Shown here in pieces: positions 38,667 through 58,357 of a stretch of 58,357 nucleotides of DNA. The notes beneath the pieces are model-generated. The model was not told where the DNA came from, did not search any database, and saw only the letters and a program-made list of their open reading frames with translations. The DNA comes from Leptolyngbyaceae cyanobacterium (lineage in GTDB: Bacteria > Cyanobacteriota > Cyanobacteriia > Phormidesmidales > Phormidesmidaceae). The stretch's first letter is position 1. Every line of letters begins with the position of its first letter. The DNA is taken from positions 1-58,357 of the forward strand of contig JBHJHA010000037.1 of assembly GCA_050331235.1 (NCBI GenBank). The letters run 5' to 3'. The translations under genes were made by a program, and so were the position numbers.

Positions 38667-39053
38667 AAACAACTACTAGGTGACAACTATGGGCTCCCAG
38701 GCGTGCCCGCACAGAGCAAAATAAACTAACCACAGAGGTTATAAACAGCGCCGCCAAAGGGGCAAGAAATTTTCTCAAGAGTCCGGCCTCAATGAGCAAG
38801 TAGATCGGCTTTTAGCCAAAGCAATTTTCAACCTTGCTCAGCATTATGAAGCAGGCAGCATTGTGCTCCCTAACTTGACTTATATTCGGGAAATTATCGA
38901 GGCAGAAATTAATGCTAGGGCTCAGTCCAAAGTTCCAGACTTTGTAGAAGGCCAGAAGCAGTATCCCAAGCTTACAGGACTCAGGTTAATCGTTGGGGCT
39001 ACAGGAGACTCCAAGCAGACATCAGTAGCAAAGCAGGTCAGGCTGGTATCGCT
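38667..39053 (+). pseudogene. cas12k: Degenerate cas12k fragment (3' region) from an older CAST
   Basis: Aligns by eye with ~52950-53339 of the full cas12k (e.g. IVEAEINARAQSKVPDFVEGQKQY region) with many substitutions and several indels. Confidence 0.9.
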
Positions 39054-39058
39054 TGAAA

Positions 39059-39091
39059 GCGCATGGATTGAGACGACTCCTCTACTGTGGA
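39059..39091 (+). CRISPR. Fossil homing crRNA unit (short repeat plus tRNA-matching spacer) of the older CAST
   Basis: GCGCATGGATTGAGAC-GACTCCTCTACTGTGGA parallels 54081-54113; spacer matches the tRNA 3' end at 14 of 17 nt. Confidence 0.8.
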
Positions 39092-39126
39092 CTCACAGGG
39101 AAGTCGTTGGATGCAATATGTTTTCA

Positions 39127-39171
39127 GCGACACTAATTCCGGAACGACGACAAATAAATCCGGATAGTAAA
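39127..39171 (+). mobile_element. Degenerate tRNA-proximal end of the older CAST
   Basis: GCGACACTAATTCCGGAACGACGACAAATAAATCCGGATAGTAAA is nearly identical to the current end (~54167-54211), with terminal GTACA changed to GTAAA. Confidence 0.85.
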
Positions 39172-39190
39172 ATTGTACAGGCAGGACACC

Positions 39191-39392
39191 TGTACGGTCC
39201 GGATTTATTTGACACTTTACGGAATTAATGTCGCCGAATTAGACTAGATCATATATACTATTTTTGAACGAATTTCTAGGCTTTGAGGCTCGTTTAGGGA
39301 GTATTTCCTGTTTTTGAGTGGGGCTAACACTCAAAAAGTCTATTCCGCATTTGAGTGTCGCCTTTTTGCAATTTCCGGAATTGAGTGTCGTC
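39191..39392 (+). repeat. tnsB-proximal transposon end with repeated TnsB-binding sites
   Basis: TCCGGATTTATTTGAC (~39198), TTACGGAATTAATGTCGC (39217-39234), TTCCGCATTTGAGTGTCGC (~39343) and TTCCGGAATTGAGTGTCG (~39373); hairpin TTTTTGAGTG/CACTCAAAAA at 39311-39337. Confidence 0.8.
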
Positions 39393-39394
39393 TT

Positions 39395-41041
39395 ATGGAG
39401 CAAGAACTCAAAAACGCCGACATACCAGTTACCCTGACGGATCAGCTAAGTTCTAGGGCTCAGAAAAGACTGGAAAGTATATTACGTCTCTTAGAACCCT
39501 GCCCATCTCGGAAGGAGTATGGACGGCGACTTCGGATTGAGGCGCAGAAACTCAATGTCAGTGTCAGGACAATGCAACGCTACATCAGTACCTGGCGCGA
39601 AAGAGGGTTGGTCGGACTCCAGGATGATGTGCGCTCTGACAAGGGCAAGTCTCGAATGGCTCCGGAGCTCACAGAACTTGCTGTCAAGCTGTTCAAGAAT
39701 CGTAAGAGAAACGGTCTTGTGCTTAATCGGCTAGATATCTACAAGCGAGTTCGGCAGAGAGCTGTTGAGTTAGGTTTACAGTCTCCTAGTCGCACAGCAG
39801 TGTACGACTTTCTCAAACCGCTCTATGAGGAAGAGGAGTCGAAGCGTTCAGTTAGAAGCTCTGGATGGCAGGGGGAGAAACTGATTCTCAATACTAAAGG
39901 GGGAAGCAATCTCGACGTCACTGAAAGCAACCAGGTCTGGCAAATTGACCATACCCCAGCAGATATCTTGGTGGTCGATGATGATGGAAATTTGCTGGGT
40001 TGTCCTTGGTTAACTGCCGTAGTTGATTCATATTCACGCTGCATTGTTGGCTTTCATATTGGTTTCGATGCGCCAAGCTCGAAGGTGGTCGCTTTAGCCC
40101 TACGTCATGCCATCTTGCCTAAGCGCTACCCAGACATTTATGGATTGAAAGAAGAGTGGGGTACGTTCGGTGTACCGCGCCATATATACACAGACAATGG
40201 CAGAGATTTTCGATCAGATCATGCCAAGCAAGTCGCCGGGCAGCTTAGATTTTCCTGGCATTATCGATCCCGTCCTCCAGAAGGTGGAATTGTTGAGCGT
40301 TTTTTCAAGACGCTCAATCAACAAGTGTGGTCAAAACTGGAAGGCTATAAGGGCTCTAACGTACAAGAGCGCCCGGAAGGAGCCGAGAAGTCTGCCATTT
40401 ACACATTAGAGCAAGTCCGTAGGGGCTTAGTCAGATACATCGTCCATCAATACAATCAGGATCTTGATCACAGAACCAACCAGAATCGCTATCAACGTTG
40501 GGAGGCGGGATTACTTCACACGCCAGTTTTACCAAGCGAACGAGAACTGGATATTTGCTTGATGAAACAGGCCACGCGCAGAGTCCAGAGACATGGACAT
40601 ATTAGCTTTGAGGGCATTACTTACAAAGGCGAAAACTTGGCAGGTAACGCGGGTAAGCAGGTCGCGCTTAGATATGACCCAGACAATCTTGGCATCCTGT
40701 ATATCTACAGCTATCACCAAAACCAGGAAATCTTTCTGTCACGAGGTTTTCCACTAATTGCAGGTTTAGAGAATCGCTCCTTAAAAGAGTGGAAAGCTGC
40801 AAAAGATGTACTTAAGAAAAACCAGAAACCTGTGACTTCTGAGAATGTGACTTCGCATTTTGAGCAAAAAGATGTCGCTCCTCAGAAGACTATGCGTCAG
40901 AGACGACGGGCAGCCCAGAAAGGGCATAAGCAAACCCTTCCAACTGTCAAAGCTGATCTGAAAAAAGCGTTTGATACTGAGACCGCAGAAAATCCCTTGT
41001 TGGATTTAGAACCTGCTTATGAAGATGACCTGTTCGAGTAA
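39395..41041 (+). CDS. tnsB: TnsB DDE transposase
   Basis: HTH (VSVRTMQRYI), RSDKG, DDE triad WQIDHT / YTDNG / GIVERFF, Mu-like C-terminus (LRYDPDN). ATG 39395 preferred. Confidence 0.93.
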   Translation: MEQELKNADIPVTLTDQLSSRAQKRLESILRLLEPCPSRKEYGRRLRIEAQKLNVSVRTMQRYISTWRERGLVGLQDDVRSDKGKSRMAPELTELAVKLFKNRKRNGLVLNRLDIYKRVRQRAVELGLQSPSRTAVYDFLKPLYEEEESKRSVRSSGWQGEKLILNTKGGSNLDVTESNQVWQIDHTPADILVVDDDGNLLGCPWLTAVVDSYSRCIVGFHIGFDAPSSKVVALALRHAILPKRYPDIYGLKEEWGTFGVPRHIYTDNGRDFRSDHAKQVAGQLRFSWHYRSRPPEGGIVERFFKTLNQQVWSKLEGYKGSNVQERPEGAEKSAIYTLEQVRRGLVRYIVHQYNQDLDHRTNQNRYQRWEAGLLHTPVLPSERELDICLMKQATRRVQRHGHISFEGITYKGENLAGNAGKQVALRYDPDNLGILYIYSYHQNQEIFLSRGFPLIAGLENRSLKEWKAAKDVLKKNQKPVTSENVTSHFEQKDVAPQKTMRQRRRAAQKGHKQTLPTVKADLKKAFDTETAENPLLDLEPAYEDDLFE

Positions 41042-41048
41042 TTGACGC

Positions 41049-41867
41049 ATGCAAAATCAAGTTGATCAAATTGCATCTGCTCTTGGGGCTTTACCAGAGC
41101 TATCTCCTGAGACTCATCAGGAGTTGGCAAGGTTATCAAAACCCCCCTATTTCCCGTTACCTAAAGTCAAGAGCTGTCATGCATTTTTAGAGGAGTGCCG
41201 TCTGGGTAACGCCCATGGTCGAATTGTGGGTGACAGTGGTGTTGGGAAAACAGTCGCAGTCAAAGCTTACGCAAAACGCCTGACACAGGTTTCAGGTGGT
41301 CAGGGGGCACTTTATGTCTTGCTAGATCCAAACTGCTCACCTAAAAGCTTTTACGAAAACATCCTTGGAGCACTTGGATTTTCCTACACCAGGGGCAGTA
41401 TCTAGGACTTACGCAACAGAACATGCCAAGTCCTATCGAGTAGGCAGATTAGGGTTCTTTTTTTGGATGAAGCCAGTTTTCTGAAGAGGGATGCGCTGGG
41501 AGAGCTTCTCTACCTGGAACAGTCTGATGCCGTGCCTTCCATTTTTCTGATTGGGACAGATCGGCTGGATGCTCTGCTAGGCCCCAACGAGGAACAAGTC
41601 AATCGCAGATATCCCCGGTATCAATATGGCCGTGTTTCTAATGCTGAACTAAAGCAATTGGTCGAACTTTGGGAGGCAAAAGTCCTCTGCCTGCCTGTGA
41701 AATCCAACCTAGCCTCGAAGAAGCCCATGAACTTGTTGATCAGCTCTACATCCGGTTGCATTGGCAAGATGGACGAAATTCTGAGAAGGGCGGCGAGAAA
41801 GGCTCTAATTTCAGGAGAGTCGAAAGTTAGCTACGAGATTCTGCAAGAAGTTGCTGGGCAGTTTTAA
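41049..41867 (+). pseudogene. tnsC: TnsC AAA+ ATPase with in-frame TAG at 41403-41405
   Basis: Walker A GDSGVGKT upstream of the stop; read-through RGSI*DLRNRT...VLFLDEA joins in frame to ORF 41463-41867 (LIGTDRL, MDEILR). Confidence 0.9.
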
Positions 41868-41870
41868 GGG

Positions 41871-42383
41871 ATGGAAAATGAATTGGCCACTCAATGGCAT
41901 CTCAGGCCGGAGCCGTTCGAGGGGGAGAGCTTTAGCCATTTTCTAGGGCGTTACTGTGCGGTGAACTATATAAGTCCCAATATCCTGGCTGAACATATTG
42001 AAGTGGGTTCAGCAGCTGTTGGGCGGTGGCGGAAGCTGAGGTATAGTCCGCCGCCCTCCGAGCGGCATTTGCAACGGTTGGCGGAAGTGACGGGAGTGAG
42101 TCCGGAGAGGCTGTTAGCGATGCTGCCTCAGGAACCAATGCAAATTGGGACGATCCGACTGTGTGCGGCCTGTTTTGGGGAAGTACCGCACCATCAAATG
42201 CATTGGCAGTATAAATCCACCCAGTTTTGCCAGAAGCACTACTTAACTCTCCTGTCCCGCTGCCCCGTTTGCAAAGCGCCTTTTCCCATACCGGCTGAGT
42301 GGACATCGGGAATTTGCCCAAGATGTGGCACTGCCTTTACTGATATGTCAAAATTTCAAAAAACAATCACGGCTCTCAGGTAG
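41871..42383 (+). CDS. tniQ: TniQ (short V-K type, zinc-binding)
   Basis: PFEGESFSHFLGR, IRLCAAC, CQKH, CPVC, CPRC; directly follows tnsC. Confidence 0.92.
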   Translation: MENELATQWHLRPEPFEGESFSHFLGRYCAVNYISPNILAEHIEVGSAAVGRWRKLRYSPPPSERHLQRLAEVTGVSPERLLAMLPQEPMQIGTIRLCAACFGEVPHHQMHWQYKSTQFCQKHYLTLLSRCPVCKAPFPIPAEWTSGICPRCGTAFTDMSKFQKTITALR

Positions 42384-42649
42384 CCACGGCGACTCGACAA
42401 TAACACTTGAATTGATGCAGCACTGCTACATTGAAATACCCTTCTCTCCCCGAAGTGTTGAAAATGGCAGAACGCCGAATCCCAGGTTACACGAGCAGTC
42501 TTTGGAAATAATTCGGGTCTTTCCGAATCTGAGAAATCCTATCTGCAGCAACGTGGCGCTATCTTTCAAGATTCACCAGGATCTGACATTTTCGATAGGA
42601 GTCCAGTAAGGCGATAGCTCTCTATTCTGTCCAGGTCTGCAAGTTGCAA

Positions 42650-42737
42650 AATCGCGCCAACTTCGGCATCTGAATCGCATCAACTTCGGCAGTCAAATCG
42701 CGCCAACTTCGGCACCTGAATCGCGTCAACTTCGGCA
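42650..42737 (+). repeat. IS21 left-end multiple terminal repeats (4 x, 23-bp period)
   Basis: AATCGC(G/A)(C/T)CAACTTCGGCA at 42650, 42673, 42696 and 42719. Confidence 0.9.
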
Positions 42738-42808
42738 GGTCATGTCTAGCCCATTTGGATGTACTCATACCCTTAGCTCAATCAAGCGTCAGCGGGATGA
42801 GAACAGCC

Positions 42809-44350
42809 ATGGGTCGAAGTGGTCAAGGAGCCAAATTGCCGATGGTGAAATTTCGAGAAATTATCCGCCTGCACGAGTTGGGGTATAACCAAAGCGAAAT
42901 CGCGCTGAGTTGCACCGTTGCTCGCTCGACAGTGCAGGACTATATCCGGCGAGCGAGTGGCAAAGGACTGAGCTATGAGGAGTTGTCTCAGCTTAGTGAT
43001 AGTGAAGCGCAAGCCCGACTGGGCAAAGGCAAACAGCCCAAAGTTGAGACAGCGATTGATTTTGCCGGTGTGCATCGTGACTTGCAAGGTAAAGGAGTGA
43101 CATTAGCGCTGCTGTGGCAAGAGGGACTTGACCAGCAGCAGTGGAATCTGAGCTACGGTCAGTTCTGTCGGCGCTATGGCCAATGGAAAGGGCAACAAAA
43201 CCTCTCAATGCGCCAGACTCATCAGGGCGGTGAAAAGATGTTTGTCGATTACTGTGGTCAAACCGTCGCTGTCTATGACCCGGTGAGTGGGGAAACGCAG
43301 ACGGCGCAAATCTTTGTGGCTTGTCTGGGAGCTAGTAACTATACCTTTGCCGAAGCGACGCCGACGCAAAGCTTGCCGCACTGGATTGGCTCCCATGAAC
43401 GAGCCTTAGCCTTCTTCGGAGGGGTGCCCAAAGCCATCGTTCCCGACAACCTCAAGTCAGGTGTCACCGACCCTTGTCGGTATGAACCGGGTGTCAACCA
43501 GAGCTATCACGCTTTTGCCGAACACTATCAGGTGGCGATTCTACCGGCTCGCTCGAAGAAGCCTCGCGACAAGTCCAAGGTAGAAAAAGCGGTGCAGGAA
43601 GTCGAACGGCAAATCTTAGCGCCGCTACGCCATCAGCGCTTTACCAGTTTCACTGACCTCAATGCCGCCATTCGAGAGCGCTTGGAGAAGCTGAATCATC
43701 GGCTGATGAAAAGCTATGGCTGCTCGCGCCGCGTGCTGTTTGAGCAAGTTGACCAACCGGCGTTGCAGCCTTTGCCGACTCATCCCTTTGTCTTTGCTCG
43801 TTGGAAGCAAGCGAAGGTGAATTTGGATTACCACCTAGAAGTGGACAAGCACTACTACTCCGTCCCCTACTGGTTCGTGCGTCGTCAGGTCAACGTCAAA
43901 GTCAGCGAAAGCTTGGTGGAAATCTTCTTTGAGCATCGCCGGATTGCTGTTCATCCCCGTTCTGGTGCTCCCTATCGTCACACAACGCTGCCGGAGCATA
44001 TGCCGCCAGAGCACTGGGCTTACCAACAACAATCGCAAGAGACCTTCCTGGTCTGGGCACAGCAGGTCGGTCCCCAAACGCACCGCCAGGTGACGGCTAT
44101 CTTTGCTGCGAAAGACCATGAGGAACAGGCCTTTCGCACCCTCAAAGGCTTGCCGTCGCTAGCTACGCGCTATGGCACTCAGCGTTTAGAAGATGCCTGT
44201 CGGCGCGCCAACACCTTTGAGCTAGTGGGCTATCGACGGCTCAAAGCCATTCTCAAGGCCCAACTGGACCGGCCTGTGCCACTTCTAGAAGTTCCTCAAG
44301 CACCCTCAGCGCGACATGACTATGTGCGCGGCGCTGATTACTACCACTGA
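42809..44350 (+). CDS. istA: IS21 transposase
   Basis: MFVDYCG, IVPDNLKSGV, KPRDKSKVEKAV, HYYSVPY, HDYVRGADYY. ATG 42809 preferred over TTG 42755. Confidence 0.92.
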   Translation: MGRSGQGAKLPMVKFREIIRLHELGYNQSEIALSCTVARSTVQDYIRRASGKGLSYEELSQLSDSEAQARLGKGKQPKVETAIDFAGVHRDLQGKGVTLALLWQEGLDQQQWNLSYGQFCRRYGQWKGQQNLSMRQTHQGGEKMFVDYCGQTVAVYDPVSGETQTAQIFVACLGASNYTFAEATPTQSLPHWIGSHERALAFFGGVPKAIVPDNLKSGVTDPCRYEPGVNQSYHAFAEHYQVAILPARSKKPRDKSKVEKAVQEVERQILAPLRHQRFTSFTDLNAAIRERLEKLNHRLMKSYGCSRRVLFEQVDQPALQPLPTHPFVFARWKQAKVNLDYHLEVDKHYYSVPYWFVRRQVNVKVSESLVEIFFEHRRIAVHPRSGAPYRHTTLPEHMPPEHWAYQQQSQETFLVWAQQVGPQTHRQVTAIFAAKDHEEQAFRTLKGLPSLATRYGTQRLEDACRRANTFELVGYRRLKAILKAQLDRPVPLLEVPQAPSARHDYVRGADYYH

Positions 44351-44379
44351 AACTGACCCACTATTCAGAGTTCTTTGCG

Positions 44380-45174
44380 ATGCAACAAACCTTAGACCAA
44401 TTGAAAACCCTCCGCCTCATCGGCTTGCTCGTTCGCGCAGCGTGCCCGAAGGGCTTAGCCTGGCAGGAACAACAGGGACAGCCTACCTATCACGACCTCA
44501 CCTTTGATGAACGCTTTGCCCTGCTCGTTGAGCGGGAGTATCTCAGGCGGCAGCACCAACGACTGCAACGACGACTCAAGCAGGCACAGCTTTCTACTCC
44601 AGCGACTCTGGAGGCAGTTGATTTTCATGTGCCACGCGGCTTGAAGAAAACTCAGTTCCTGGAATGGGCTCAGGGCCAGTGGTTGGGCCAGCACCTTAAT
44701 CTCATCTTGATGGGGCCGACAGGCGTGGGAAAAACCTTCTTGGCTTGTGTTTTAGCCGACCATCTCTGCAAGCAGGGCTATACCGTGCGCTATTTCAAAA
44801 CTGCTGAACTGCTCTCAGAATTGAAGTTCGCCAAACTCGATGGCTCGTTCCCCAAACTGCGCAAACAACTCGCAACCTTTGACCTCATTATTCTCGATGA
44901 GTGGCTGCGCGATGCCCTCGCGCCCAATGATGCCCGCGAAGTTCTCGACTTCCTCGATGACCGCTATCGACGTTCCTCTTGTCTGCTCGCAACCCAATTC
45001 CCCATCAACCAGTGGCATCCCCAAATTCAAGACCCGACGTTAGCCGATGCTATTCTTGACCGCTTGGTGCATGACTCCCTTCGCCTGGCCCTCAAAGGTG
45101 AGTCCATGCGCAAGCTCACCAGCCCGCTCAAGGGCGAAACTGATCTGATTGCAGAGGAAAACGCCATGTCTTAG
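44380..45174 (+). CDS. istB: IS21 helper ATPase
   Basis: GPTGVGKT, IILDEW, TLADAILDRLVH, LKGESMR. Confidence 0.92.
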   Translation: MQQTLDQLKTLRLIGLLVRAACPKGLAWQEQQGQPTYHDLTFDERFALLVEREYLRRQHQRLQRRLKQAQLSTPATLEAVDFHVPRGLKKTQFLEWAQGQWLGQHLNLILMGPTGVGKTFLACVLADHLCKQGYTVRYFKTAELLSELKFAKLDGSFPKLRKQLATFDLIILDEWLRDALAPNDAREVLDFLDDRYRRSSCLLATQFPINQWHPQIQDPTLADAILDRLVHDSLRLALKGESMRKLTSPLKGETDLIAEENAMS

Positions 45175-45314
45175 AAACGCCGATCACCGTTGTCGTCAAC
45201 TGACGACTATTAGACGACAATGAAATTGACCTGCCCAATGACCGCGAAATTTTCTCAGGTTTTCAGGGGTGCCGAAGTTGATGCAACTCGGTGCCGAAGT
45301 TACGAGAATACGCA

Positions 45315-46581
45315 TGGGTCCGCTCGCTAACGTATAAGGCCCGTACCGATGTTCTTGATGCTCGACATAGAGTTCGTTGTCGAAGAGTCCCCACCACAGC
45401 ACCACGGTTTCTCCTGCTAAATCCGGGTCTACTTCATACGTCGCCCCGGCTACCGTGACCCGAGCATCACTGCCAACTTTTCGGGTTTCCGGTTCACGCG
45501 CAAAGGTGCAAAAGCGCTCCCAATTGCACATGCCCCGAATCCCAGCCGCGGGTAATCGGCTGACCCAGTCTTCCCTCCGGGAATGGGGCTCGCTGCGATG
45601 TTTCAGGCTGTTGTAATGCAGTAAGAACCGACATAACCAGGCGTTCGCCTCCACTTCCGTCTCCGGCTCATGGAGGTGATAGAGGGTCTCGTGCATTTCC
45701 TTGACGCTGCGAAACGGGCGTTCGACTTTCCCTTTCGAGCGAGCGGTCACCCGCCGACCATCCTTGCCTTGGGGCATGTGAGTTCGCACCTCAATGCCCA
45801 GCGCATCCATCACGCTTTGGAAAACCTGGCTCCGCGCAATGGGGCCGTTATCCATGTAGAGCATCTGAGGAATTCCCTGGAAGGGGAAATCCTCCACCGA
45901 TTTAGGCGACATGGCCGTAAACAGAAACCGTAAGGCCGCCTCCACATCCTCTCCATACACCCCGTGGTATTCCTGATAAGCCACCCCACTGCGGTCATCC
46001 ACGACGCTGTAGAGCATCAGCAGCGGACGCCCTCGAGCGGGGTCCATCCAGACGGGGGTTTTGACATGCTTAAGATCCGACGGACTGAGATCAAAGTGCC
46101 AACAGTCATTGCTGTGTTCCGCCTGGAAATGAACCACAGGCGGTTGGCGAGTCATCCGCGCCTGGTCATAGCCCCACTGCTGCAGATAGCGATTCACAGT
46201 CGTTTTCTTCAGCAATCCTGGAGGGGCCTGAATCAGTCCCTCCGGGGTATCTACCCCGTGCTCTTCCAACAGCCGAATTGCTTGCACGGTTGAGAGATGG
46301 CGGCCTTTGCCATTGCAGGTGCGTACTTTCAGGGCGGCAATCGCCTCACAGTAGCGTTCCATATTTAGTTTTGACATCACCCGGGGGCTGCCCGCATCGT
46401 CACGGCGAGCCGAACGAACCCATTTTTGCTCTCGCAGCGTGCGATATAAGGTGGCCTCTGAAACGTCATAGAGCTGCGCCGTTTTCTGCACCAACTGCCG
46501 ACGTTCGGCACTGCGGACGGGCAATTGATCCAAGCGTCGCCGTAAGTCCAGTAAGGTTTCGGATGGAATCTGCTTGCCCAC
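45315..46581 (-). pseudogene. DDE (rve, Mu/TniA-like) transposase, 3' truncated by IS21
   Basis: WHFDLS, LYMDNG and KGKVERPF catalytic motifs; the ORF tail below 45315 is read from the IS21 end. Confidence 0.82.
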
Positions 46582-46593
46582 GGCTCCCCCTGG

Positions 46594-47217
46594 TTATCCC
46601 GACGAGGGACGAGAGTGAATCTGGCGACGCTTGAGCCAGTCGTAAAGCGTCGAAGGTGCACAGTCCACTAATTTGGCAATCGACCGCTTACTAATCCCTT
46701 TGGCCAAGTAATCCCGAATCTCGGTTTCCTTATCATCCAGCTTCAAATGCTGGGACTGACTGCCTTTCGGGCGGCCCAGTAATTTCCCCTCGGCCTTACG
46801 TTTCGCGAGGGCCTCAGTGGTGCGCAGGGAAATAAACTCCCGCTCAATCTCCGCGGCCAGACCTAAGACCGTAGCTGTAATACGACTTTGCATCGAGCTG
46901 TCCAGGACCATCTGTTGCTTGGCGATATGCACCGTAATCTCCCGCTGCATGGCACATTCCAGCATTTCTAGAACTTGTAGAGTGGAGCGGGCCATGCGGC
47001 TGATTTCGGCAAACACCACAGTGTCACCAGTCTGGGCGGTTTCCATCAGGAGTTGACCAACCGCTCGTTCACGCCATTTCACGCGACCTGAGACGCTATC
47101 CTCGACAAACTGTAGGGGACCTAACTGATGCGTATTGGCGTACTCCAAAATGCCGTGGCGCTGATTAGCTCCGTCTTGATGTTCACTGGAGACGCGGAGA
47201 TAGGCGTAGGCGGCCAT
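46594..47217 (-). CDS. Serine recombinase (resolvase) with C-terminal HTH
   Basis: YAYLRVSS, EISRMAR, AEIEREFISLRT, GRP, HTH (PSTLYDWL). Confidence 0.92.
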   Translation of the reverse strand: MAAYAYLRVSSEHQDGANQRHGILEYANTHQLGPLQFVEDSVSGRVKWRERAVGQLLMETAQTGDTVVFAEISRMARSTLQVLEMLECAMQREITVHIAKQQMVLDSSMQSRITATVLGLAAEIEREFISLRTTEALAKRKAEGKLLGRPKGSQSQHLKLDDKETEIRDYLAKGISKRSIAKLVDCAPSTLYDWLKRRQIHSRPSSG

Positions 47218-47253
47218 AAATGTAACCGTTTCCAACAAAAACGGCTTTGAGGC

Positions 47254-47315
47254 TTAATTCAAACAGATACGTTCTAATTTAAACCTAAAGAAGCGCACAT
47301 ATCTGTTTGGATTAA
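47254..47315. promoter_or_regulatory. Putative res site / resolvase binding sites
   Basis: TTAATTCAAACAGATA ... TATCTGTTTGGATTAA (15/16 inverted repeat, 30-bp gap) in AT-rich DNA just upstream of the resolvase. Confidence 0.55.
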
Positions 47316-47452
47316 ACCATCGTTAAATTCAAATATGCAGTCGTTGAAATACTCAAAGATTCAAAAGTTACATTGACTGTCCTGCTAAAGATTTCTGATT
47401 CGTCAAACATCATTCTTCACTAATCTTGTCTCCTTATTAAGAGGTTCATGCC

Positions 47453-48865
47453 ATGGTAAACCGATCGCAGAAAGTCATCCGACGCGCTTTAAAACCCTTC
47501 TTTTACAGCCTGATGGGAATGCTAATGGTTTTGGCGATCGCGGGGCTTTCCCAAATCGGCCTTGCCCAAGCGCCCTCCCGCGTGCTGTTTGAAAACGTGC
47601 GCATTTTTGATGGCACGTCCCCCGGTCTGTCTGACCCGGCCTATGTGCTGGTGGAAAACAATAAAATTCAGACTATCTCAGACGAACCCCTGGCTGTGAC
47701 GGCTGTAGGAGATTTGACCATTGTTGATGGCAATGGTCGCACCTTAATGCCAGGACTCATTGATGCCCATTATCACTTCAACGTTGCCACCTTAGCCCTT
47801 GAAGATCTGTTAGACCCCAATATTTCTAACGAAGCCGCCCGTGAAGCCATTCTTCAGACCGCCCCCATCGAAGCCAGCAACTATTTGATGCGCGGCTTCA
47901 CGAGTGGGCGCGATGTCGGGGGGAATGTGTTTGACCTCAAGCGAGACATTGATGCAGGTGAACTGGTGGGACCACGCATTTGGCCCAGTGGTGCTTCGAT
48001 TAGTCAAACCAGTGGTCATGGTGATTTTCGCTTTCCTGATGAGCTCCCCCGAACGCCGACATCGCCCCTCTCTCGTACAGAGGTGCTCGGGGAAACCATC
48101 ATTGCCGATGGTGTGCCTGAAGTGCTGCGTCGAGTGCGCGAGCAGCTCAGACAAGGGGCCTCCCAAATCAAGGTTCACGCTGGTGGCGGTGTTACCTCAT
48201 CTTTTGACCCCCTGGATGTTTTGCAATATACCGAGGAAGAGTTACAGGCGGCGGTCGATGCGGCGGCTGATTGGAACACCTATGTGGCGGTGCATGCCTT
48301 TACGCCAGCTTCGATTCAGCGGGCGATCAAGGTGGGTGTCAAAACCATTGAACATGGCCATTTAATCGATGAGGAAACTGCTCAGCTGATGGCTGAGACG
48401 GGGACTTGGCTGAGCATGCAGCCCGTGCTAGATGACGAAGATGCGCTCGTTCCCGAAGGCTCGGCACCGGTGAACCGGGAAAAGTATTTGCAAACGACTG
48501 AGGGTACCGAAATTACCTACCGCTTAGCCAAGCAATACAACGTCAAAACGGCTTGGGGCACGGATGTGCTGTTTGACCCTCGGCTCGCTTCTCGTCAGAT
48601 GTTCCAGCTCACCAAAATGGTGCGTTGGTATGAACCCTGGGAAGTGCTGAAAATGGCGTCCCATGACAATGCCGAAATGCTGGCTTTATCTGGCCCACGC
48701 AATCCTTATCCTGGCAAGTTAGGCGTTGTCGAGGAAGGGGCACTGGCCGATCTGTTGCTGGTCGAGGGTGATCCCACCGAGGACATCACTGTGCTGGAAG
48801 ATGCTGAGCAGAATCTACTGGTGATCATGAAAGACGGCAAGATTTACAAGAATCTGCTGTCGTAA
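47453..48865 (+). CDS. Secreted metal-dependent amidohydrolase (prolidase-like)
   Basis: Signal peptide; PGLIDAHYH, QIKVHAGGG, AVHA, EHG, GTD, GALADLL. Confidence 0.88.
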   Translation: MVNRSQKVIRRALKPFFYSLMGMLMVLAIAGLSQIGLAQAPSRVLFENVRIFDGTSPGLSDPAYVLVENNKIQTISDEPLAVTAVGDLTIVDGNGRTLMPGLIDAHYHFNVATLALEDLLDPNISNEAAREAILQTAPIEASNYLMRGFTSGRDVGGNVFDLKRDIDAGELVGPRIWPSGASISQTSGHGDFRFPDELPRTPTSPLSRTEVLGETIIADGVPEVLRRVREQLRQGASQIKVHAGGGVTSSFDPLDVLQYTEEELQAAVDAAADWNTYVAVHAFTPASIQRAIKVGVKTIEHGHLIDEETAQLMAETGTWLSMQPVLDDEDALVPEGSAPVNREKYLQTTEGTEITYRLAKQYNVKTAWGTDVLFDPRLASRQMFQLTKMVRWYEPWEVLKMASHDNAEMLALSGPRNPYPGKLGVVEEGALADLLLVEGDPTEDITVLEDAEQNLLVIMKDGKIYKNLLS

Positions 48866-48883
48866 CGGCGGACCCGGAGAAAG

Positions 48884-50512
48884 GTGATGAAAAAGCGCTT
48901 GGTCTTTCTCCTGAGCCTATGCCTTGGCCTGGTGCTCAGCACGCTGCTAGCGGCACCCACACCGAGTCTGGCTCAGGATGTCCGCCCGATTACCTGGAAT
49001 GATTTGCTGGAGCAAACCGCGATCGAGTTTGACGACCCGTTCGCGGCGCTCAGCGAAGAGCAACTGTACCAGGTGTCAATGATTGCCCGATATCGCCTGC
49101 TACGGCAACAAGGCAAAGCGGGATCGAATACCCCATCTGAAACAGAGCGGGAATATTTAGCGACGTTGCAGGCCCAGAGCATTGACGTGGATTGGTTGCT
49201 GGCCCAGCGAGAGCGGGTGATGCAGGCTCGGAAACAGCAGTTGAGTGCGCCTGCGACGGTGAGTGGGGAGCGGGTCGCGATTTCTGGCTATGTCTTACCC
49301 TTGACCCAAAAGCGGCAACGCGTGACGGAATTTTTGCTAGTGCCCTGGCTCGGAGCCTGTATCCACACGCCCCCGCCCCCGCCCAACCAGATTGTTCATG
49401 TGACCTTTCCCCAAGGCATGGCGGTTCACGATCGCTTTGACCCCATGACGATTGCGGGGTTACTCGATACCGCCTTTGCATACCACGAGCTTTTTTTAGT
49501 GGATGGTAGCCGGGATGTGGGGGTGACCTACACCCTGGCGGCTGAGGCGGTGACGGCCTATGTCCCTGGCGAGACAGATCCGCTGTCTCAAGTGGTGATT
49601 CCGGAGGAAGCTCTGGCTGGACAACATTTTTGGCAGCGCTGGCAAACCCAGGTATCTTTACTGTTTACGAACACGATGGCTGACATTCAGGGCCAACCTC
49701 TGTCCCGGGCGTTTCTCATCGGCGTGGTCATTGCTTTTGCCTATGGTGTGATCCATACCCTTGGCCCCGGCCATGGCAAGGCGGTGATTGTTTCGTATTT
49801 TGTCGGTGAGGGCGGCAGTCTGCAACGGGGGCTATGGATGGGAGTGCGCATTGCTGTGCTGCATGTGTTGGCTGCGGTGGTGCTGGTGGTCGCGACCGAT
49901 GTCGTGGTACAGCAGGTGGGCGGCAGTGCCGCAGGGAACTTTCGCATCATGCGCCTGGTGAGCTATGGCGCGATTGCTAGCATTGGCGGTTGGATGTTGT
50001 GGCAGGCGCTACGGACTTATCGAAACGCGGCTCCCTTGCCCCAAACTATGGCATCGGCTGCTTTAGAACAGACGCCCACCGAGACCATTATCTATCCCCG
50101 CCTGAGCCAAGCCGTTCTAGCGCCGCCACCGGACAAAACTATCTTTAATCACACTGCGAATTGGGGCTGCTCCTGTCTCAGTTGCCTTCCCTCCACCAAA
50201 ACTGGGACATGGTTATCGATGGCGGTTGGGGCGGTGCCCTGTAGCGGCGCGTTAATTGTGCTCCTCTACGGTTTGGCGAACAATATGCTGTGGGTTAGCG
50301 TCACCCTAGTCGTCGCCATTTCAGTCGGCATGGCGATCGCCCTTTCCACCGTTGGAGTTCTCGCGCTTCTCGGTCGACAAACGCTTGATCAACGCCTGCT
50401 GGGCAGTGCTCGCCAACGCACCATCGCCGCTGGTCTCAGGCTCATGGGCGCAATCGCTGTGTTCTCCGTAGGTCTTTTTTTATTTGTAGTGACCTTAGCA
50501 CCTACAGCATGA
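48884..50512 (+). CDS. DUF3299-like domain fused to an RcnA/NiCoT-type nickel/cobalt transporter domain
   Basis: FLLVPWLGACIHTPPPPPNQ, then HTLGPGHGK and VPCSGAL with multiple TM helices. Confidence 0.78.
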   Translation: MMKKRLVFLLSLCLGLVLSTLLAAPTPSLAQDVRPITWNDLLEQTAIEFDDPFAALSEEQLYQVSMIARYRLLRQQGKAGSNTPSETEREYLATLQAQSIDVDWLLAQRERVMQARKQQLSAPATVSGERVAISGYVLPLTQKRQRVTEFLLVPWLGACIHTPPPPPNQIVHVTFPQGMAVHDRFDPMTIAGLLDTAFAYHELFLVDGSRDVGVTYTLAAEAVTAYVPGETDPLSQVVIPEEALAGQHFWQRWQTQVSLLFTNTMADIQGQPLSRAFLIGVVIAFAYGVIHTLGPGHGKAVIVSYFVGEGGSLQRGLWMGVRIAVLHVLAAVVLVVATDVVVQQVGGSAAGNFRIMRLVSYGAIASIGGWMLWQALRTYRNAAPLPQTMASAALEQTPTETIIYPRLSQAVLAPPPDKTIFNHTANWGCSCLSCLPSTKTGTWLSMAVGAVPCSGALIVLLYGLANNMLWVSVTLVVAISVGMAIALSTVGVLALLGRQTLDQRLLGSARQRTIAAGLRLMGAIAVFSVGLFLFVVTLAPTA

Positions 50513-50519
50513 TGACTTG

Positions 50520-50724
50520 CCCATTTGCAGGCGAATGGGAATTCCCGTGTAAGCGCCTTATTTGCAAATAATATGGGTCAGACCGGATGTTTGCAGGTTC
50601 ATTTGCAGGAATGCGGGTCCATTCTCAAATAATGTGGGTCCAAACCCTATTTTCATTTGCAAATAATGTGGGTCGAAAATGCGATGTTTGCGGGTTGAGG
50701 CGATTATGTTTGCAGGTCGCAACA
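50520..50724 (-). repeat. Terminal end of a nested Mu/Tn7-superfamily transposon with multiple transposase-binding repeats
   Basis: Ends ...GGTCGCAACA (TGTTGCGACC on minus); repeated ATTTGCAAATAAT(A/G)TGGGTC and ATGTTTGC(A/G)GGT motifs. Confidence 0.65.
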
Positions 50725-50951
50725 CTTAGAGAACTTTCGTTTACTCAATTACGCGGAGATTCTCCAGGTCATCATTCTCTTTGGCGCAGTTCTTGGCAGC
50801 CCGGAAGAGCTGGCCACGGTTTCTGGACTTTACACTCCGGAAGAATAAACCAACTAGAATCAGATTTCCTTAAGTAATGTCGTAAATTGACTGATGGAAA
50901 TCAGTTCTTCCCAGATCTTGAACTTAACTCCAAGCTGGCTAAATAGTACTG

Positions 50952-51527
50952 ATGAGTATTCAAATTCAATCGTGTATTCACACCGAAGTTGACGATATTC
51001 ATGACCGCGAGTCAGGTTTTTGTATCGCGGGCAAAATCCTTCATGTCGAATGCGACCTTGACCGCGATGATCTCATAGAAGTACAGGTCGGTCATATTGT
51101 GGCCCATCAGATTGTCGGCACCGTTGATGAGCTGACAATTTGGGCTGACAGTATCAGTCATGATTTATCTGATGCTGTTGTATGGCTACAGGATCTTTGT
51201 CGGAGCAAAGATGATTTAGCTTGCTTGAGTAGTTATTTATTTGTCGAAGAGCTTGAAATCAATCCTAAATGGCGTAGACGCGGAATTGGCCTCAAAGCCA
51301 CCGCTGCCTTTTTGGAGGTACATGCCAACAGAGGCTTTGTCTTTTTGAAACCGATGCCTCTTCATAAGCCAGACTCACCCGAAGAAAACATCCGGGAAAT
51401 TGAAAGGCTGAGAAGATTTTGGCAAAGATTGGGACTTGACCATTTCGATAGCGAAGCTAATTTCCTTTGGAATTCAGCTTGGCAATGTCCCAGGGAGTTG
51501 GCAGGAACTGAGGATCTTCTACCGTAG
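50952..51527 (+). CDS. GNAT-like acetyltransferase-fold protein
   Basis: LFVEELEINPKWRRRGIG acetyl-CoA motif A and LRRFWQRLGL. Confidence 0.62.
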   Translation: MSIQIQSCIHTEVDDIHDRESGFCIAGKILHVECDLDRDDLIEVQVGHIVAHQIVGTVDELTIWADSISHDLSDAVVWLQDLCRSKDDLACLSSYLFVEELEINPKWRRRGIGLKATAAFLEVHANRGFVFLKPMPLHKPDSPEENIREIERLRRFWQRLGLDHFDSEANFLWNSAWQCPRELAGTEDLLP

Positions 51528-51590
51528 ATTGCTTGACAGCTGCGGTATGGGGAAGGATAGAATTTTCGGAAAAGTTAGTACGCATAAACT

Positions 51591-53486
51591 ATGGGCCAGA
51601 AGACAATTCGCTGCCGCTTAATTGCTACGGAGGAAAGCCGTCAAGCAATCTGGCAACTAATGGCTGAACGCAACACTCCCCTAATCAATGAAGTGTTACA
51701 GCAGATTCCAAAACATCCAGACTTTGCCAAGTGGCAACAGAGAGGAAGTTTGCCAGACAGTGCAGCTAGGGTGATCATCGATAGGCTAAAAAATGACCCA
51801 CGTTTCAGCGGTCAGCCTTCCTACCACTACATCTCAGCCCAGAAGCAGGTGACCTATACCTTCAAGAGTTGGCTTACTATTCAACGTCGCAAACAGTGGA
51901 AACTAGAGGGCAAACGTCTGTGGTTAGAGATTTTGCAATCTGATACAAAGTTGGCAGAGCTCGCAAAATGCAGCATAGATAAACTGCATACAGAGGCGGA
52001 AAAGATCCTGCGTCGAGTGACGGGCCAAGATTCCTTTAAGCGCCTTCTGGAGCGGTACAAGAGTGAAAGGAACCTGCTTTGTAAGTGCGCCATCGCCTAT
52101 TTACTCAAGCGAAACTTGAATATTGAGGCTGAGGAAAACCCCGAACAGCTAGAAAAGCGACACCATAAAACTGAGGTCCGGATCAAGCGCTTGGAAATCC
52201 AACTTCAAGCAAGTCTTCCAAAAGGCCGAGATCTATTAGGAGAACGTCAAGCAGTAGCCCTCGCCCAAAGTGTTTTAGCTCCCCCTGAAGACGATCAGAG
52301 CTACGAAATCTGGAGAAATGCCCTAACAAGGGAGCCTGCTCAGCTTCCCTTCCCAATACTTTATGAGACTTCCGAATGCTTGCAATGGAAAAGAAATGAG
52401 CATGGGCGATTGAGTGTTAGCTTCAGTGGTTTGAGTGAACATATCTTGAAGGTTTACTGTGATATGCCACATCAGCACTGGTTTAATCGCTTCTTTGAAG
52501 ACCAAGAGACCAAAAGATCAGGAAGTGATCAGCACTCTGCGGGCTTATTCACCTTGCGCTCAGCTAAGTTGTCATGGAGACCTGATCCAAAGCATGTCAA
52601 CGCTTCTGCTCCTTGGAATCGTTACTATCTGAATCTTTCCTGCACGGTTGATACCCGTTTGTGGACACAGGAAGGAACTCAAACCGTCATCCAAGAAAAG
52701 GCTGCAAATACAGCAGTAAAGCTTGAGTCGATGCGAGAGAAAAGCAATCTCAGCCCAACGCAAGAAGGATATATCAGGCGGTTGGAGTCTACTTTAACCA
52801 AACTACAAATACCCTATCCTCGCCCCAGTCGAAGACCTTATTCAGGGAAAGCGAATATCCTGGTTGGAGTCAGCATGGGACTAGATAAGCCAGCGACAGT
52901 TGCAGTCGTGGACGCCCTTACTAGTGAGGTATTGACTTATCAATCAACCAAAAAACTATTAGATGACAACTATCGGCTCCTGAGGCGTGCCCGCACAGAG
53001 CAAAATAAAGCTAGCCACAGAGGTCACAAACAGCGCCTCAGGGGCGGCAAGAACTTTGCTCAAGAGTCTGACATCAGTAAGCAGGTAGATCGGCTCTTAG
53101 CGAAAGCAATTGTCAACCTCGCTCAGCATTATGAAGCAGGCAGTATTGTGCTCCCTAACTTGGCTTATATTCGTGAAATTGTCGAGGCGGAAATAAATGC
53201 TAGAGCTCAATCCAAAGTTCCAGACTTCGTAGAAGGCCAGAAGCAGTATGGCAAAGCTTACAGAACTCAAGTACATCGTTGGGGCTATGGGAGACTGCAA
53301 GAAGCCATTAGTAGCAAAGCAGGTCAGGCTGGCATCGCTATCGAGATAACTCAACAGGGTTCTTCAGGCAATTAAGCTGAAAAAGCTAAGGATTTGGCTT
53401 TAAGAGCTTTTGAAAGCCGCAAAACCGATGAAGTCAAGCTTGGCAATAAGAATTCTGATATCGCCACCGTGAGAGTGACAGGGTAA
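51591..53486 (+). pseudogene. cas12k: Cas12k (type V-K effector) with premature in-frame TAA at 53373-53375
   Basis: TIRCRL, MAERNTPLINE, LPKGRD, PFPILYET, LFTLRSA, VDTRLWTQEGT, GVSMGLDKPATVAV, VHRWGYGRL; the conserved EKAKDLALRAFESR lies after the stop, ending TAA 53484-53486 (631 codons). Confidence 0.93.
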
Positions 53487-53544
53487 ATTCTCCGTAATTA
53501 GCTATTTGAGGACCAAGTAGCAATCCAGCAAGCTAGTATATATG

Positions 53545-53787
53545 TACAAAAGCGCCGCAGATCATGCGCAAGCCTCTGTTCTGTGAAAAATGAGGGTTTG
53601 TATGACTGTGTAATAACAGTCATACTTTCTGGCCCTGGTAGCTGACCACTCCGATGCTGCTGTTGAAAGTGAACTCGCCTAGACTTGGACACCTAACAAC
53701 AGGAAAGGGGCGCACCCAGCAAGAGAGGACGGACTTACTGTAGTGTTGGCTGCTGAATCAACTCCGAACAAGGAGTAATCCATGCAC
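53545..53787 (+). ncRNA. Type V-K tracrRNA
   Basis: Recognisable V-K tracr blocks AGCGCCGCAG..CATG, GCCTCTG, AAATGAGGGTT, GACTGT..ACAGTC, CTTTCTG.CCCTGGTAGCTG, GATGCTGC, GCGC.CCCAGCAA, GCTGAATCA; 3' anti-repeat TCCATGCAC. Boundaries approximate. Confidence 0.88.
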
Positions 53788-53986
53788 TCATACCCAAATA
53801 ATACCCGCCGCGAACCCTGAGCAAGGGAATTTTTCCTGGAAGGTTCGCGCAAGCGTAGAAGCTTTGAGCAGTGGTCTTTTCACATGTTCTTTGCTTTCAG
53901 GTTCAAGCCAAATCTATCCGCCTTAATTGAGGTTCGCGATTGGAAAGGCTGGAGCCGTTCATTTGAAAGGGTTCTAAATGAGCGCC

Positions 53987-54113
53987 GACGCCATGAGCTA
54001 TCCAGGCTCATGAGGATTGAAACTGAAGAATTTAGTAAAGGAGTACTCATATACTTACTGAGTACTCCTTTACTATTGAAGTGCATGGACTGAAACGACT
54101 CCTGTACTCTGGA
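53987..54113 (+). CRISPR. Minimal CRISPR locus: one full 37-nt repeat, a hairpin segment, then a short repeat plus homing spacer
   Basis: Repeat GACGCCATGAGCTATCCAGGCTCATGAGGATTGAAAC (53987-54023); short repeat GTGCATGGACTGAAAC (54081-54096); spacer GACTCCTGTACTCTGGA (54097-54113) matches the tRNA 3' end 16/17; leader-like GCGAACC...GGTTCGC upstream. Confidence 0.85.
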
Positions 54114-54147
54114 ATCGTAGGTTGTTGCTAGATGTATCAAGCCTTTA

Positions 54148-54211
54148 GCGACATTAATTCCGGAAAGCGACATTAATTCCGGAACGACGACAAATAAATC
54201 CGGATCGTACA
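54148..54211 (-). repeat. tRNA-proximal CAST end with three tandem TnsB-binding sites
   Basis: GCGACATTAATTCCGGAA x2, then CGACAAATAAATCCGGA and terminal CGTACA. Confidence 0.9.
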
Positions 54212-54241
54212 ACACCCCGATCATCAGCAGGGCAAATGAAG

Positions 54242-54314
54242 TCCAGGGTACAGGAGTCGAACCTGTCTAAGGCGAATTATGAGTTCGCTGCCTAATCCGC
54301 TCGGCCAACCCTGG
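54242..54314 (-). tRNA. tRNA with CAT anticodon (probably tRNA-Ile2, lysidine type; Met not excluded)
   Basis: CCAGGGT acceptor stem, GCGAA-CTCATAA-TTCGC anticodon arm, GGTTCGACTCC T arm, discriminator A, no encoded CCA. Confidence 0.92.
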
Positions 54315-57796: not shown

Positions 57797-58357
57797 CCAT
57801 AGCAAACCGCAGATAGGTTGAGCTGATCCTAGGTATCAACAAAGGCCTGGTCAACGACGGCTCGGAAAGATTCACCGGCCTGAATTTTCTTTCGCATTCG
57901 ATTCTTCAAGACGAACCACCAATGCTCAATCGGATTGAGGTCGGGCGAATACGGTGGCAAGTACAGTAGACGACCCCCCGCTTGCTCTACCAGCGATTGA
58001 ATCCGTCCGCCTTTGTGGAAGGTCGCGTTATCGCAAATGATCACCGTTCCCGGCGCTAAGGTCGGCAGCAATGCCTGCTCCAACCAGGTCTCGAAAACGT
58101 TGCGGTTGCAGTAGCCTTCGTAAGTCATCGGGGCTAGCATGGTCTCCTGGCATAAGGCTGCGATAAAACTGACCCGCTCGCGACGACGGCCTCGTTGCTC
58201 GGCGGCAAACCGCTCACCGCGCTTGCACCACCCGTAGCTGTAGTCCTCTGTATTATCGATGCCCGCCTCATCGAGATAGACACAGTTGTGTGGCTCAAGT
58301 CGTTCCATCTCAACTAGAAACGCTTGACGCTTGTTGGCATCCCGTTCGTGGCAGGCG
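57794..58357 (-). mobile_element. IS630-family insertion sequence (partial, runs off window end)
   Basis: Transposase on the minus strand ends at 57829; the element end plausibly abuts the TA at 57794-57795. Confidence 0.72.
57829..58357 (-). CDS. IS630-family transposase, DDE portion (5' partial)
   Basis: YLDEAG, ICDNATFH, YLPPYSPDLNPIEHWW; the frame stays open to the window edge. Confidence 0.9.
   Translation of the reverse strand, partial: ACHERDANKRQAFLVEMERLEPHNCVYLDEAGIDNTEDYSYGWCKRGERFAAEQRGRRRERVSFIAALCQETMLAPMTYEGYCNRNVFETWLEQALLPTLAPGTVIICDNATFHKGGRIQSLVEQAGGRLLYLPPYSPDLNPIEHWWFVLKNRMRKKIQAGESFRAVVDQAFVDT

Follow-up and report, generated by a model that had tools for sequence, protein, structure and literature searches.

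Probable remnant of an older type V-K CAST beside a later, related element at a cyanobacterial tRNA-Met gene

Results and Discussion

The segment at 38667–39179 of the window (a 58,357-nucleotide stretch of DNA, which is one entire contig from the metagenome bin of a 4.8-Mb cyanobacterial genome) is very probably what remains of the tRNA-side tip of an older type V-K CAST. A sister element likely homed to the same site later by the same guide-RNA mechanism, inserting between this remnant and tRNA-Met. Ends are named here following the published convention, as given in PMC9938897, in which the tRNA and cas12k side is the left end (LE) and the tnsB side is the right end (RE). Stacked V-K CAST relics, in which an LE fossil abuts a later RE, were not found described in the literature searched, although a published mention is possible. 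Degenerated cas12k copies are mentioned in Ziemann 2023. The kind of element is known, and it is the layout for which we found no description; stacking at one site is known for Tn7-like elements generally.

The resident CAST and its attachment site

A type V-K CAST beginning with TGTACGG and ending with CGTACA occupies 39191–54211 (Table 1). Its terminal inverted repeats (39191–39211 and 54191–54211) are 95% complementary, and the 5 bp directly outside the two termini form a perfect duplication. The RE contains four TnsB-type sites (39191–39214, 39217–39236, 39343–39364, and 39373–39394), and the order tnsB-tnsC-tniQ, read inward from this end, is present. No TnsA-type Pfam match was obtained among the 14 CAST open reading frames scanned. 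Judging from sequence similarity, Cas12k, TnsB, TnsC, and TniQ are orthologues of the ShCAST proteins, and by its gene set, ends, and duplication the resident can be classed as an ordinary member of the V-K CAST family. Its cas12k is the only full copy in the genome, according to a search of the bin's own assembly. A divergent MerR/Arc-type regulator was looked for upstream of cas12k, where two open reading frames (50587–50877 and 50952–51527) lie on the same strand as cas12k and have no Pfam match. For the ~700 bp downstream of cas12k, Rfam gave no family and no clear 37-nt repeat family was seen.

Table 1. Features of the stacked locus, with positions in the window
Feature	Position	Strand	Basis
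Relic cas12k tail	38667–39053	+	Last ~130 codons minus the final ~12; frameshifted
Relic truncated repeat (R*')	39054–39073	+	Alignment to 54076–54095
Relic homing (anchor) spacer	39074–39091	+	14/17 match to tRNA-Met 3' end
Relic left end (LE')	39126–39179	+	Two TnsB-type sites; 81% complementary to RE tip
Target-site duplication ACACC, tnsB-side copy	39186–39190		Same 5 bp outside both termini
RE of resident CAST	39191–39394	+	Terminal TGTACGG; internal repeat/inverted-repeat comparison
tnsB	39314–41041	+	Pfam rve and Mu-transpos_C; ShCAST TnsB in PDB, E 3e-144
tnsC	41049–41867	+	AAA_22/TniB in N-terminal half (Pfam); one in-frame TAG at 41403–41405
tniQ	41871–42383	+	Pfam TniQ; ShCAST TniQ, E 5e-42
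IS21-family insertion in CAST cargo	42649–45174	+	Pfam rve/Mu-transpos_C_2 and IstB_IS21; terminal repeats
cas12k (resident)	51591–53375	+	594 aa, open frame; ShCas12k chains in PDB, E 2e-166
Expected tracrRNA and minimal/degenerate CRISPR array region	53376–54079	+	By position only
Resident truncated repeat	54080–54095	+	Next to LE
Resident homing spacer	54096–54113	+	17/18 positions complementary to tRNA 54242–54259
Resident LE	54147–54211	+	Three contiguous TnsB-type sites, last bases CGTACA
Target-site duplication ACACC, tRNA-side copy	54212–54216		Sequence
tRNA-Met (CAT), attachment site	54241–54314	−	ARAGORN; Rfam tRNA; sequence

This current CAST may be dead too, given the TAG stop in its tnsC. 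The tnsC frame is otherwise open, and the C-terminal half past the stop still matches residues 144–274 of ShTnsC (E 2e-25). The interruption makes the function of the tnsB-tnsC-tniQ set doubtful, and the element is probably not autonomous, unless the TAG is a consensus error in the bin. Two other features of the element were noted. The IS21-family insertion sits directly past tniQ in the cargo and comprises istA (42755–44350), istB (44380–45174), and four copies of its 23-bp terminal repeat (terminal repeats at 42649–42761). A serine resolvase gene occupies 46594–47238 on the minus strand.

The CAST lies 29 bp behind tRNA-Met. The protospacer is in the 3' end of the tRNA gene (54259–54242, minus strand), the PAM is GTT at 54262–54260, and the resident LE stands 48 nt from this PAM. 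V-K CASTs are described in PMC9938897 as being arranged in the order tRNA, LE, truncated repeat with a 17-nt anchor spacer, array, tracrRNA, cas12k, cargo, tniQ-tnsC-tnsB, and RE, with 46–82 nt between PAM and LE. The window element resembles these in gene set and order, in its terminal repeats, and in its 5-bp duplication; its truncated repeat and 17-nt spacer match the tRNA with a GTN PAM, and the distance of its LE falls within the published range. Unlike them, however, it is accompanied by a second, older LE-side tip just beyond its RE.

A decayed stub outside the right end

The sequence that adjoins the RE-side ACACC is a stub of ~520 bp, the parts of which follow one another in the same order and orientation as at the resident LE side. 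The cas12k tail aligns to resident positions 52950–53339 with 87% nucleotide identity over 390 columns (blastn, E 2.6e-131), including 45 substitutions and five 1-nt indels, and contains internal stops. It ends at a deletion joint (39053/39054), where the final ~12 cas12k codons and ~740 bp, equivalent to the expected tracrRNA/array region of the resident (53340–54079), are missing. Past this joint, positions 39057–39094 are 84% identical to the resident repeat and spacer (54079–54116). The left end follows; here, positions 39126–39172 are 94% identical to 54166–54212, including a 32-bp exact run, and the two relic TnsB sites equal resident sites at 21/21 and 18/19 positions. At the relic tip, AGTAAA takes the place of the resident CGTACA, leaving no intact terminal ACA at the homologous position, and a TGTACA is found 8 bp outward of it at 39174–39179. 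The old terminus is ambiguous on this sequence and may be either the mutated tip at 39171 or position 39179. A further 14 bp (39172–39185) separate the relic end from ACACC, after which the RE begins.

These results uphold the description given by an earlier, sequence-only reading of the locus, which had recognized a decayed cas12k fragment (38667–39053), a short repeat plus spacer that still matches the tRNA, and a TnsB-site-bearing end (39127–39171), arranged as at the far end of the intact element and lying 14 bp from the duplication. The check that it had proposed, an alignment of the relic to 52950–54211, matched all three parts in the order described. Further remains of the old element were sought with CAST queries in positions 1–39190 (blastn and tblastn), and no tnsB, tnsC, tniQ, further cas12k, RE, or duplication of its own was detected there. 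The other end of the old element and its duplication are gone, which makes its own insertion at this site presumptive.

Divergence between relic and resident

The relic and resident elements appear to be closely related. By tblastn, the relic cas12k shares 79–82% amino acid identity with that of the resident. In a sample of 400 cyanobacterial genomes, the next closest Cas12k (G373) has 66% identity to the resident protein, and the rest at most 47%. For TnsB, the nearest relative of the resident lineage found was 77% identical (G286). The spacers are also alike. That of the resident has a single mismatch to the tRNA-Met 3' end (1/17) and that of the relic has three (3/17), of which one, a T for C, is common to both spacers and two are extra in the relic. 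The common mismatch fits descent of the two elements from a shared ancestor. Another tRNA as the target of the relic spacer was considered and rejected, as the bin's own genome holds no better target within 3 mismatches.

Such similarity could also be produced locally, if part of the resident's own tRNA-side tip had been copied and the copy had since decayed. Aberrant or replicative transposition could have made such a copy, as could tandem self-insertion in a polyploid chromosome. The membership of both in one lineage and their common spacer mismatch would agree with such an origin, as would the replicative transposition of V-K CASTs, which are without TnsA (PMC11406308). The pattern of substitution speaks against it. 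Across 126 codons, relic and resident cas12k give a dN/dS of 0.23 (dS 0.33, dN 0.075), and the substitutions at codon positions 1, 2, and 3 number 13, 9, and 23, whereas a dead duplicate would be expected to show a ratio near 1. This ratio indicates that most of the 13% nucleotide divergence arose with both genes under purifying selection, in separate lineages, and divergence as working genes makes relic and resident sister elements rather than a local duplicate. The indels in the relic cas12k came later, after the divergence under selection. Moreover, the duplication stayed perfect and the TnsB sites 94% identical during that time, as would be expected of functional constraint on a separate lineage more than of a copy decaying at this site. 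We consequently regard a local duplication as highly improbable. The sequence-only reading had proposed two related but divergent CASTs and had itself named local duplication as the outcome that would speak against it; both the codon-level ratio and the gap to the next nearest Cas12k favor its proposal.

The bin's own assembly was also examined for a donor of the relic. Protein and DNA searches of its 4.8 Mb recovered no cas12k beyond the resident and the relic, and a donor copy elsewhere in the genome was rejected, as there is no third cas12k. A second tnsB homologue, without a second cas12k, is located on another contig (G000:C82:3234–4700, minus strand). It was rejected as a part of the old element, being only 46% identical in amino acid sequence, and probably belongs to another Tn7-like element.

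Order of arrival at tRNA-Met

The relative age of the two insertions can be read from the joint and from the geometry of homing. The intact ACACC duplication implies that, before the resident inserted, the locus ran from the old end through 14 bp, ACACC, and 24 bp to the tRNA. In this reconstructed pre-insertion state, the old tip would stand 62 nt from the PAM, or 54 nt with 39179 as its terminus, compared to 48 nt for the new tip. Furthermore, guided insertion takes place at a fixed distance from the PAM, so an element standing 15 kb from the tRNA today cannot have arrived by homing later than the one adjacent to the tRNA. Reasoning from this established mechanism, the guide-RNA geometry gives the order old, then new. 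The two elements have the same orientation, the newer one lies between the older one and the tRNA, and the duplication of the newer one is intact. The landing of the newer CAST between the older end and the tRNA, as the sequence-only reading had it, is thus supported by the duplication and by the fixed PAM distance.

A plausible sequence of events would be as follows. A first element would have homed to tRNA-Met by its short crRNA, coming to rest with its end 62 nt (or 54 nt) from the PAM. A second element of the same lineage would then have been guided to this protospacer again, landing 48 nt from the PAM and pushing the first away from the tRNA. The displaced element would subsequently have lost everything from its tnsB-side end to the middle of cas12k. 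A deletion would also have removed the tracrRNA and array, and the tip would have mutated.

The wider locus was compared with 11 tRNA-Met loci from the same genus, each fetched with up to 10 kb of 3' flank (less at contig ends). No CAST proteins were detected within the fetched flanks of these congeners. In the comparison among relatives that the sequence-only reading had suggested, no empty, old-only, or stacked state of this lineage appeared among the 11 loci, and the flanking genes, at ~72% identity, are too diverged to align. One congener (G010:C66, L034) has an LE-like relic of this lineage, ~75 bp long with three TnsB-type sites, ~32 bp behind its own tRNA-Met, with no CAST genes in the 8 kb fetched beside it. 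In 7 of the 11 loci, a glutaredoxin gene follows tRNA-Met after ~100–135 bp in the same orientation (two of the seven verified by tblastx, the others by visible similarity). In the window, its orthologue (77% amino acid identity) is at 850–1167 on the plus strand, opposite to tRNA-Met and 37.5 kb to the left of the relic. This displacement and inversion indicate that a larger rearrangement, an inversion or other, touched the locus, and suggest that the segment between the glutaredoxin gene and the relic was inverted or otherwise rearranged. The left 38 kb of the window consists of signal-transduction genes. At both window ends (1–499 and 57829–58357) there are IS630/DDE_3-type transposase genes, and the assembly probably broke at these IS copies.

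The rearrangement leaves room for a different history, in which relic, CAST, and tRNA flank were imported together, ready-made, by homologous recombination after DNA uptake, with no second homing in the lineage of this host. The displaced and inverted glutaredoxin gene is compatible with import, as is the histidine kinase to the left of the relic, which is without a close orthologue in the genus sample. Import would, however, only move the stacking to another host, leaving the reading of the joint as two sequential insertions unchanged, and no donor sequence was found. Among the alternatives considered here, we give it the lowest probability.

The joint in independent assemblies

The contig comes from a bin of a stromatolite metagenome, which raises the possibility of an assembly chimera or strain mixture, whereby a relic-only strain and a CAST-only strain were threaded together through the 32-bp repeat of both left ends. 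The relic/RE joint was compared with Logan k=31 contigs from three runs of one study. The independent contigs of the likely source run stop exactly at this repeat (39134–39165, where LE' and LE are identical), which two paths enter and two leave in the k=31 assembly (depths of 8.9, 26.5, 7.3, and 11.8 for records 1, 6, 7, and 8, respectively), as a chimera would also predict. The k=31 contigs neither confirm nor refute the pairing of relic and RE, which rests on the bin's own assembly. Nonetheless, one independent contig of 2433 nt (record 7) runs from inside the LE-type 32-mer through AGTAAAATTGTACAGGCAGGACACC (mutated tip, 14 bp, and ACACC) into the RE and tnsB, so that an LE-type site abuts the RE in the reads under either pairing. 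The alternative pairing would be a head-to-tail CAST junction with a mutated tip, and the simplest origin for such a junction would be recombination of the stack at the repeat.

Other observations also count against a chimera. ACACC flanks the CAST exactly as expected of a TnsB duplication, the 32-bp repeat is shorter than an ordinary read, and the same stacked layout occurs in genomes that are assembled into few, megabase-sized contigs (G370 and G419, discussed below). Weighing both sides, we consider a chimera or strain mixture very unlikely and retain the stacked arrangement as assembled. A 158-nt contig identical to relic positions 38701–38858 was found in a second sample of the same study, and the old-only joint was not seen in the Logan contigs of the three runs.

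Target immunity at the joint

The two conserved TnsB-type sites of the relic are only 14–19 bp from the point at which the newer CAST inserted. These sites match those of the resident almost perfectly, so the newcomer's TnsB should have recognized them, and with near-identical sites at the old end, target immunity was probably either circumvented or not strong enough to keep the second element out. The conclusion of the sequence-only reading, that immunity failed to stop a renewed invasion, is a reasonable one. The old end may already have been a two-site stub with a dead tip when the newcomer arrived.

Laboratory data on this question are available for the ShCAST core machinery in E. coli, where a mini element placed 50–500 bp from the programmed site lowered transposition ~100-fold (preprint 10.1101/2025.08.27.672191). 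The situation in the window is similar to this assay in that transposon ends lie close to a programmed insertion site, but it differs in that an end with two cognate-looking sites is found 14–19 bp from an insertion that was completed.

Reuse of one attachment site also has precedents outside the V-K family. Tandem Tn7-like islands at attTn7 were reportedly described by Parks and Peters in 2007. In Acinetobacter baumannii, natural Tn6022 insertions are reported beside and inside resident elements despite strong immunity (PMC11014353). As in those cases, one attachment site was reused in the window, the newest element is nearest to the recognized sequence, and resident ends protect incompletely. 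The selector here, however, is a guide RNA and not TnsD/TniQ. The window pair are also close relatives with near-identical TnsB sites, whereas heterologous elements are expected to ignore each other, and the older element of the window has been reduced to 520 bp.

Similar joints in other cyanobacteria

The sequence-only reading had suggested that V-K loci be screened for cas12k and homing-crRNA relics beyond the tnsB-side end. For this purpose, we used 60 regions upstream of tnsB homologues from the 400 sampled cyanobacterial genomes, four of which were shorter than 900 bp (contig ends). A search with ten Cas12k queries (tblastn) detected no C-terminal cas12k fragment outside the RE in any of the 60 regions; only the window, included as a control, was positive. 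A second scan examined the 80 bp beyond the RE for the tip of the RE in inverted form. It flagged twelve loci, in five of which the pair is at the RE terminus (L063, L077, L094, L103, and L121). The other seven were rejected as stacks, being hairpins or pairs away from the RE tip. An older LE-like tip therefore abuts the RE in 5/60 other tnsB-upstream regions. 

In the five loci, the new RE is located between 3 nt inside and 5 nt outside the old tip, and offsets of −3 to +5 nt are as expected if old and new insertions were measured by one shared ruler. Compared to these, the 14-bp shift toward the PAM in the window is an outlier. Both junctions could be checked in two of the five loci, G370 and G419. 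Outside the RE in G370 (L077), there is a CRISPR-repeat remnant, followed by a truncated repeat, a spacer, and five TnsB-type sites. The relic spacer matches the neighboring tRNA-Ala at 15/17 positions and the resident spacer at 16/17. A perfect AATGT stands on both sides of the G419 element (L121), and the last ACA of the old tip remains between the new LE and tRNA-Lys. Hence, the newcomer in G419 inserted 3 nt inside the old tip.

On balance, we lean slightly toward the view that Cas12k transposons regularly re-home into occupied sites, landing a few base pairs from the old tip or in it under the same guide-RNA ruler. The older copy would be displaced and would decay until only its left end remained as a stub. 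The tRNA sites would accordingly hold a layered record of CASTs, and about one V-K locus in ten would show immunity, ~100-fold in the laboratory, failing over evolutionary time even between near-identical ends. V-K CASTs are under development as single-copy, site-specific insertion tools, in which target immunity is expected to keep insertions single. The window joint, with a related element 14–19 bp from two cognate-looking TnsB sites, and the five loci with a newcomer at or inside the old tip point to an immunity that is not absolute. The exact sequence of each junction is available for reconstruction as a test target, and the joints show how far the ruler can move if the usual landing position is taken (in the window, the older end is at 62 nt from the PAM and the newer one at 48 nt). 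With relics of this kind, genomes also reveal in which order CAST lineages arrived at tRNA sites and how these lineages turn over. The added value is modest, namely a natural record of re-homing into an occupied site at this locus and in 5/60 others.

Several further loci were noted in the course of the screen. L054, L058, L059, and L060 have cas12k tails beside tRNAs with no tnsB in the fetched flank; they were rejected as stacks and are plain relics. In G370 (G370:C1, L077/L123), the 5 bp flanking the element differ at its two ends (ACTGT and TGTGG). It is a matter of speculation, but this difference would fit if the element had inserted into the old tip and an 8-bp tandem repeat had then collapsed. 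N-terminal cas12k fragments of 42–60 amino acids are present upstream of tnsB in L119 (G249:C1:214487–214612) and L079 (G412:C63). The fragment in G249 precedes a second tnsB by ~250 bp, and a further tnsB is located another 10 kb up, an arrangement in which one CAST may be nested in another or may truncate it. Lastly, L083 (G408:C5) has two inverted TnsB-type sites ~150 bp inside the RE of another V-K element.
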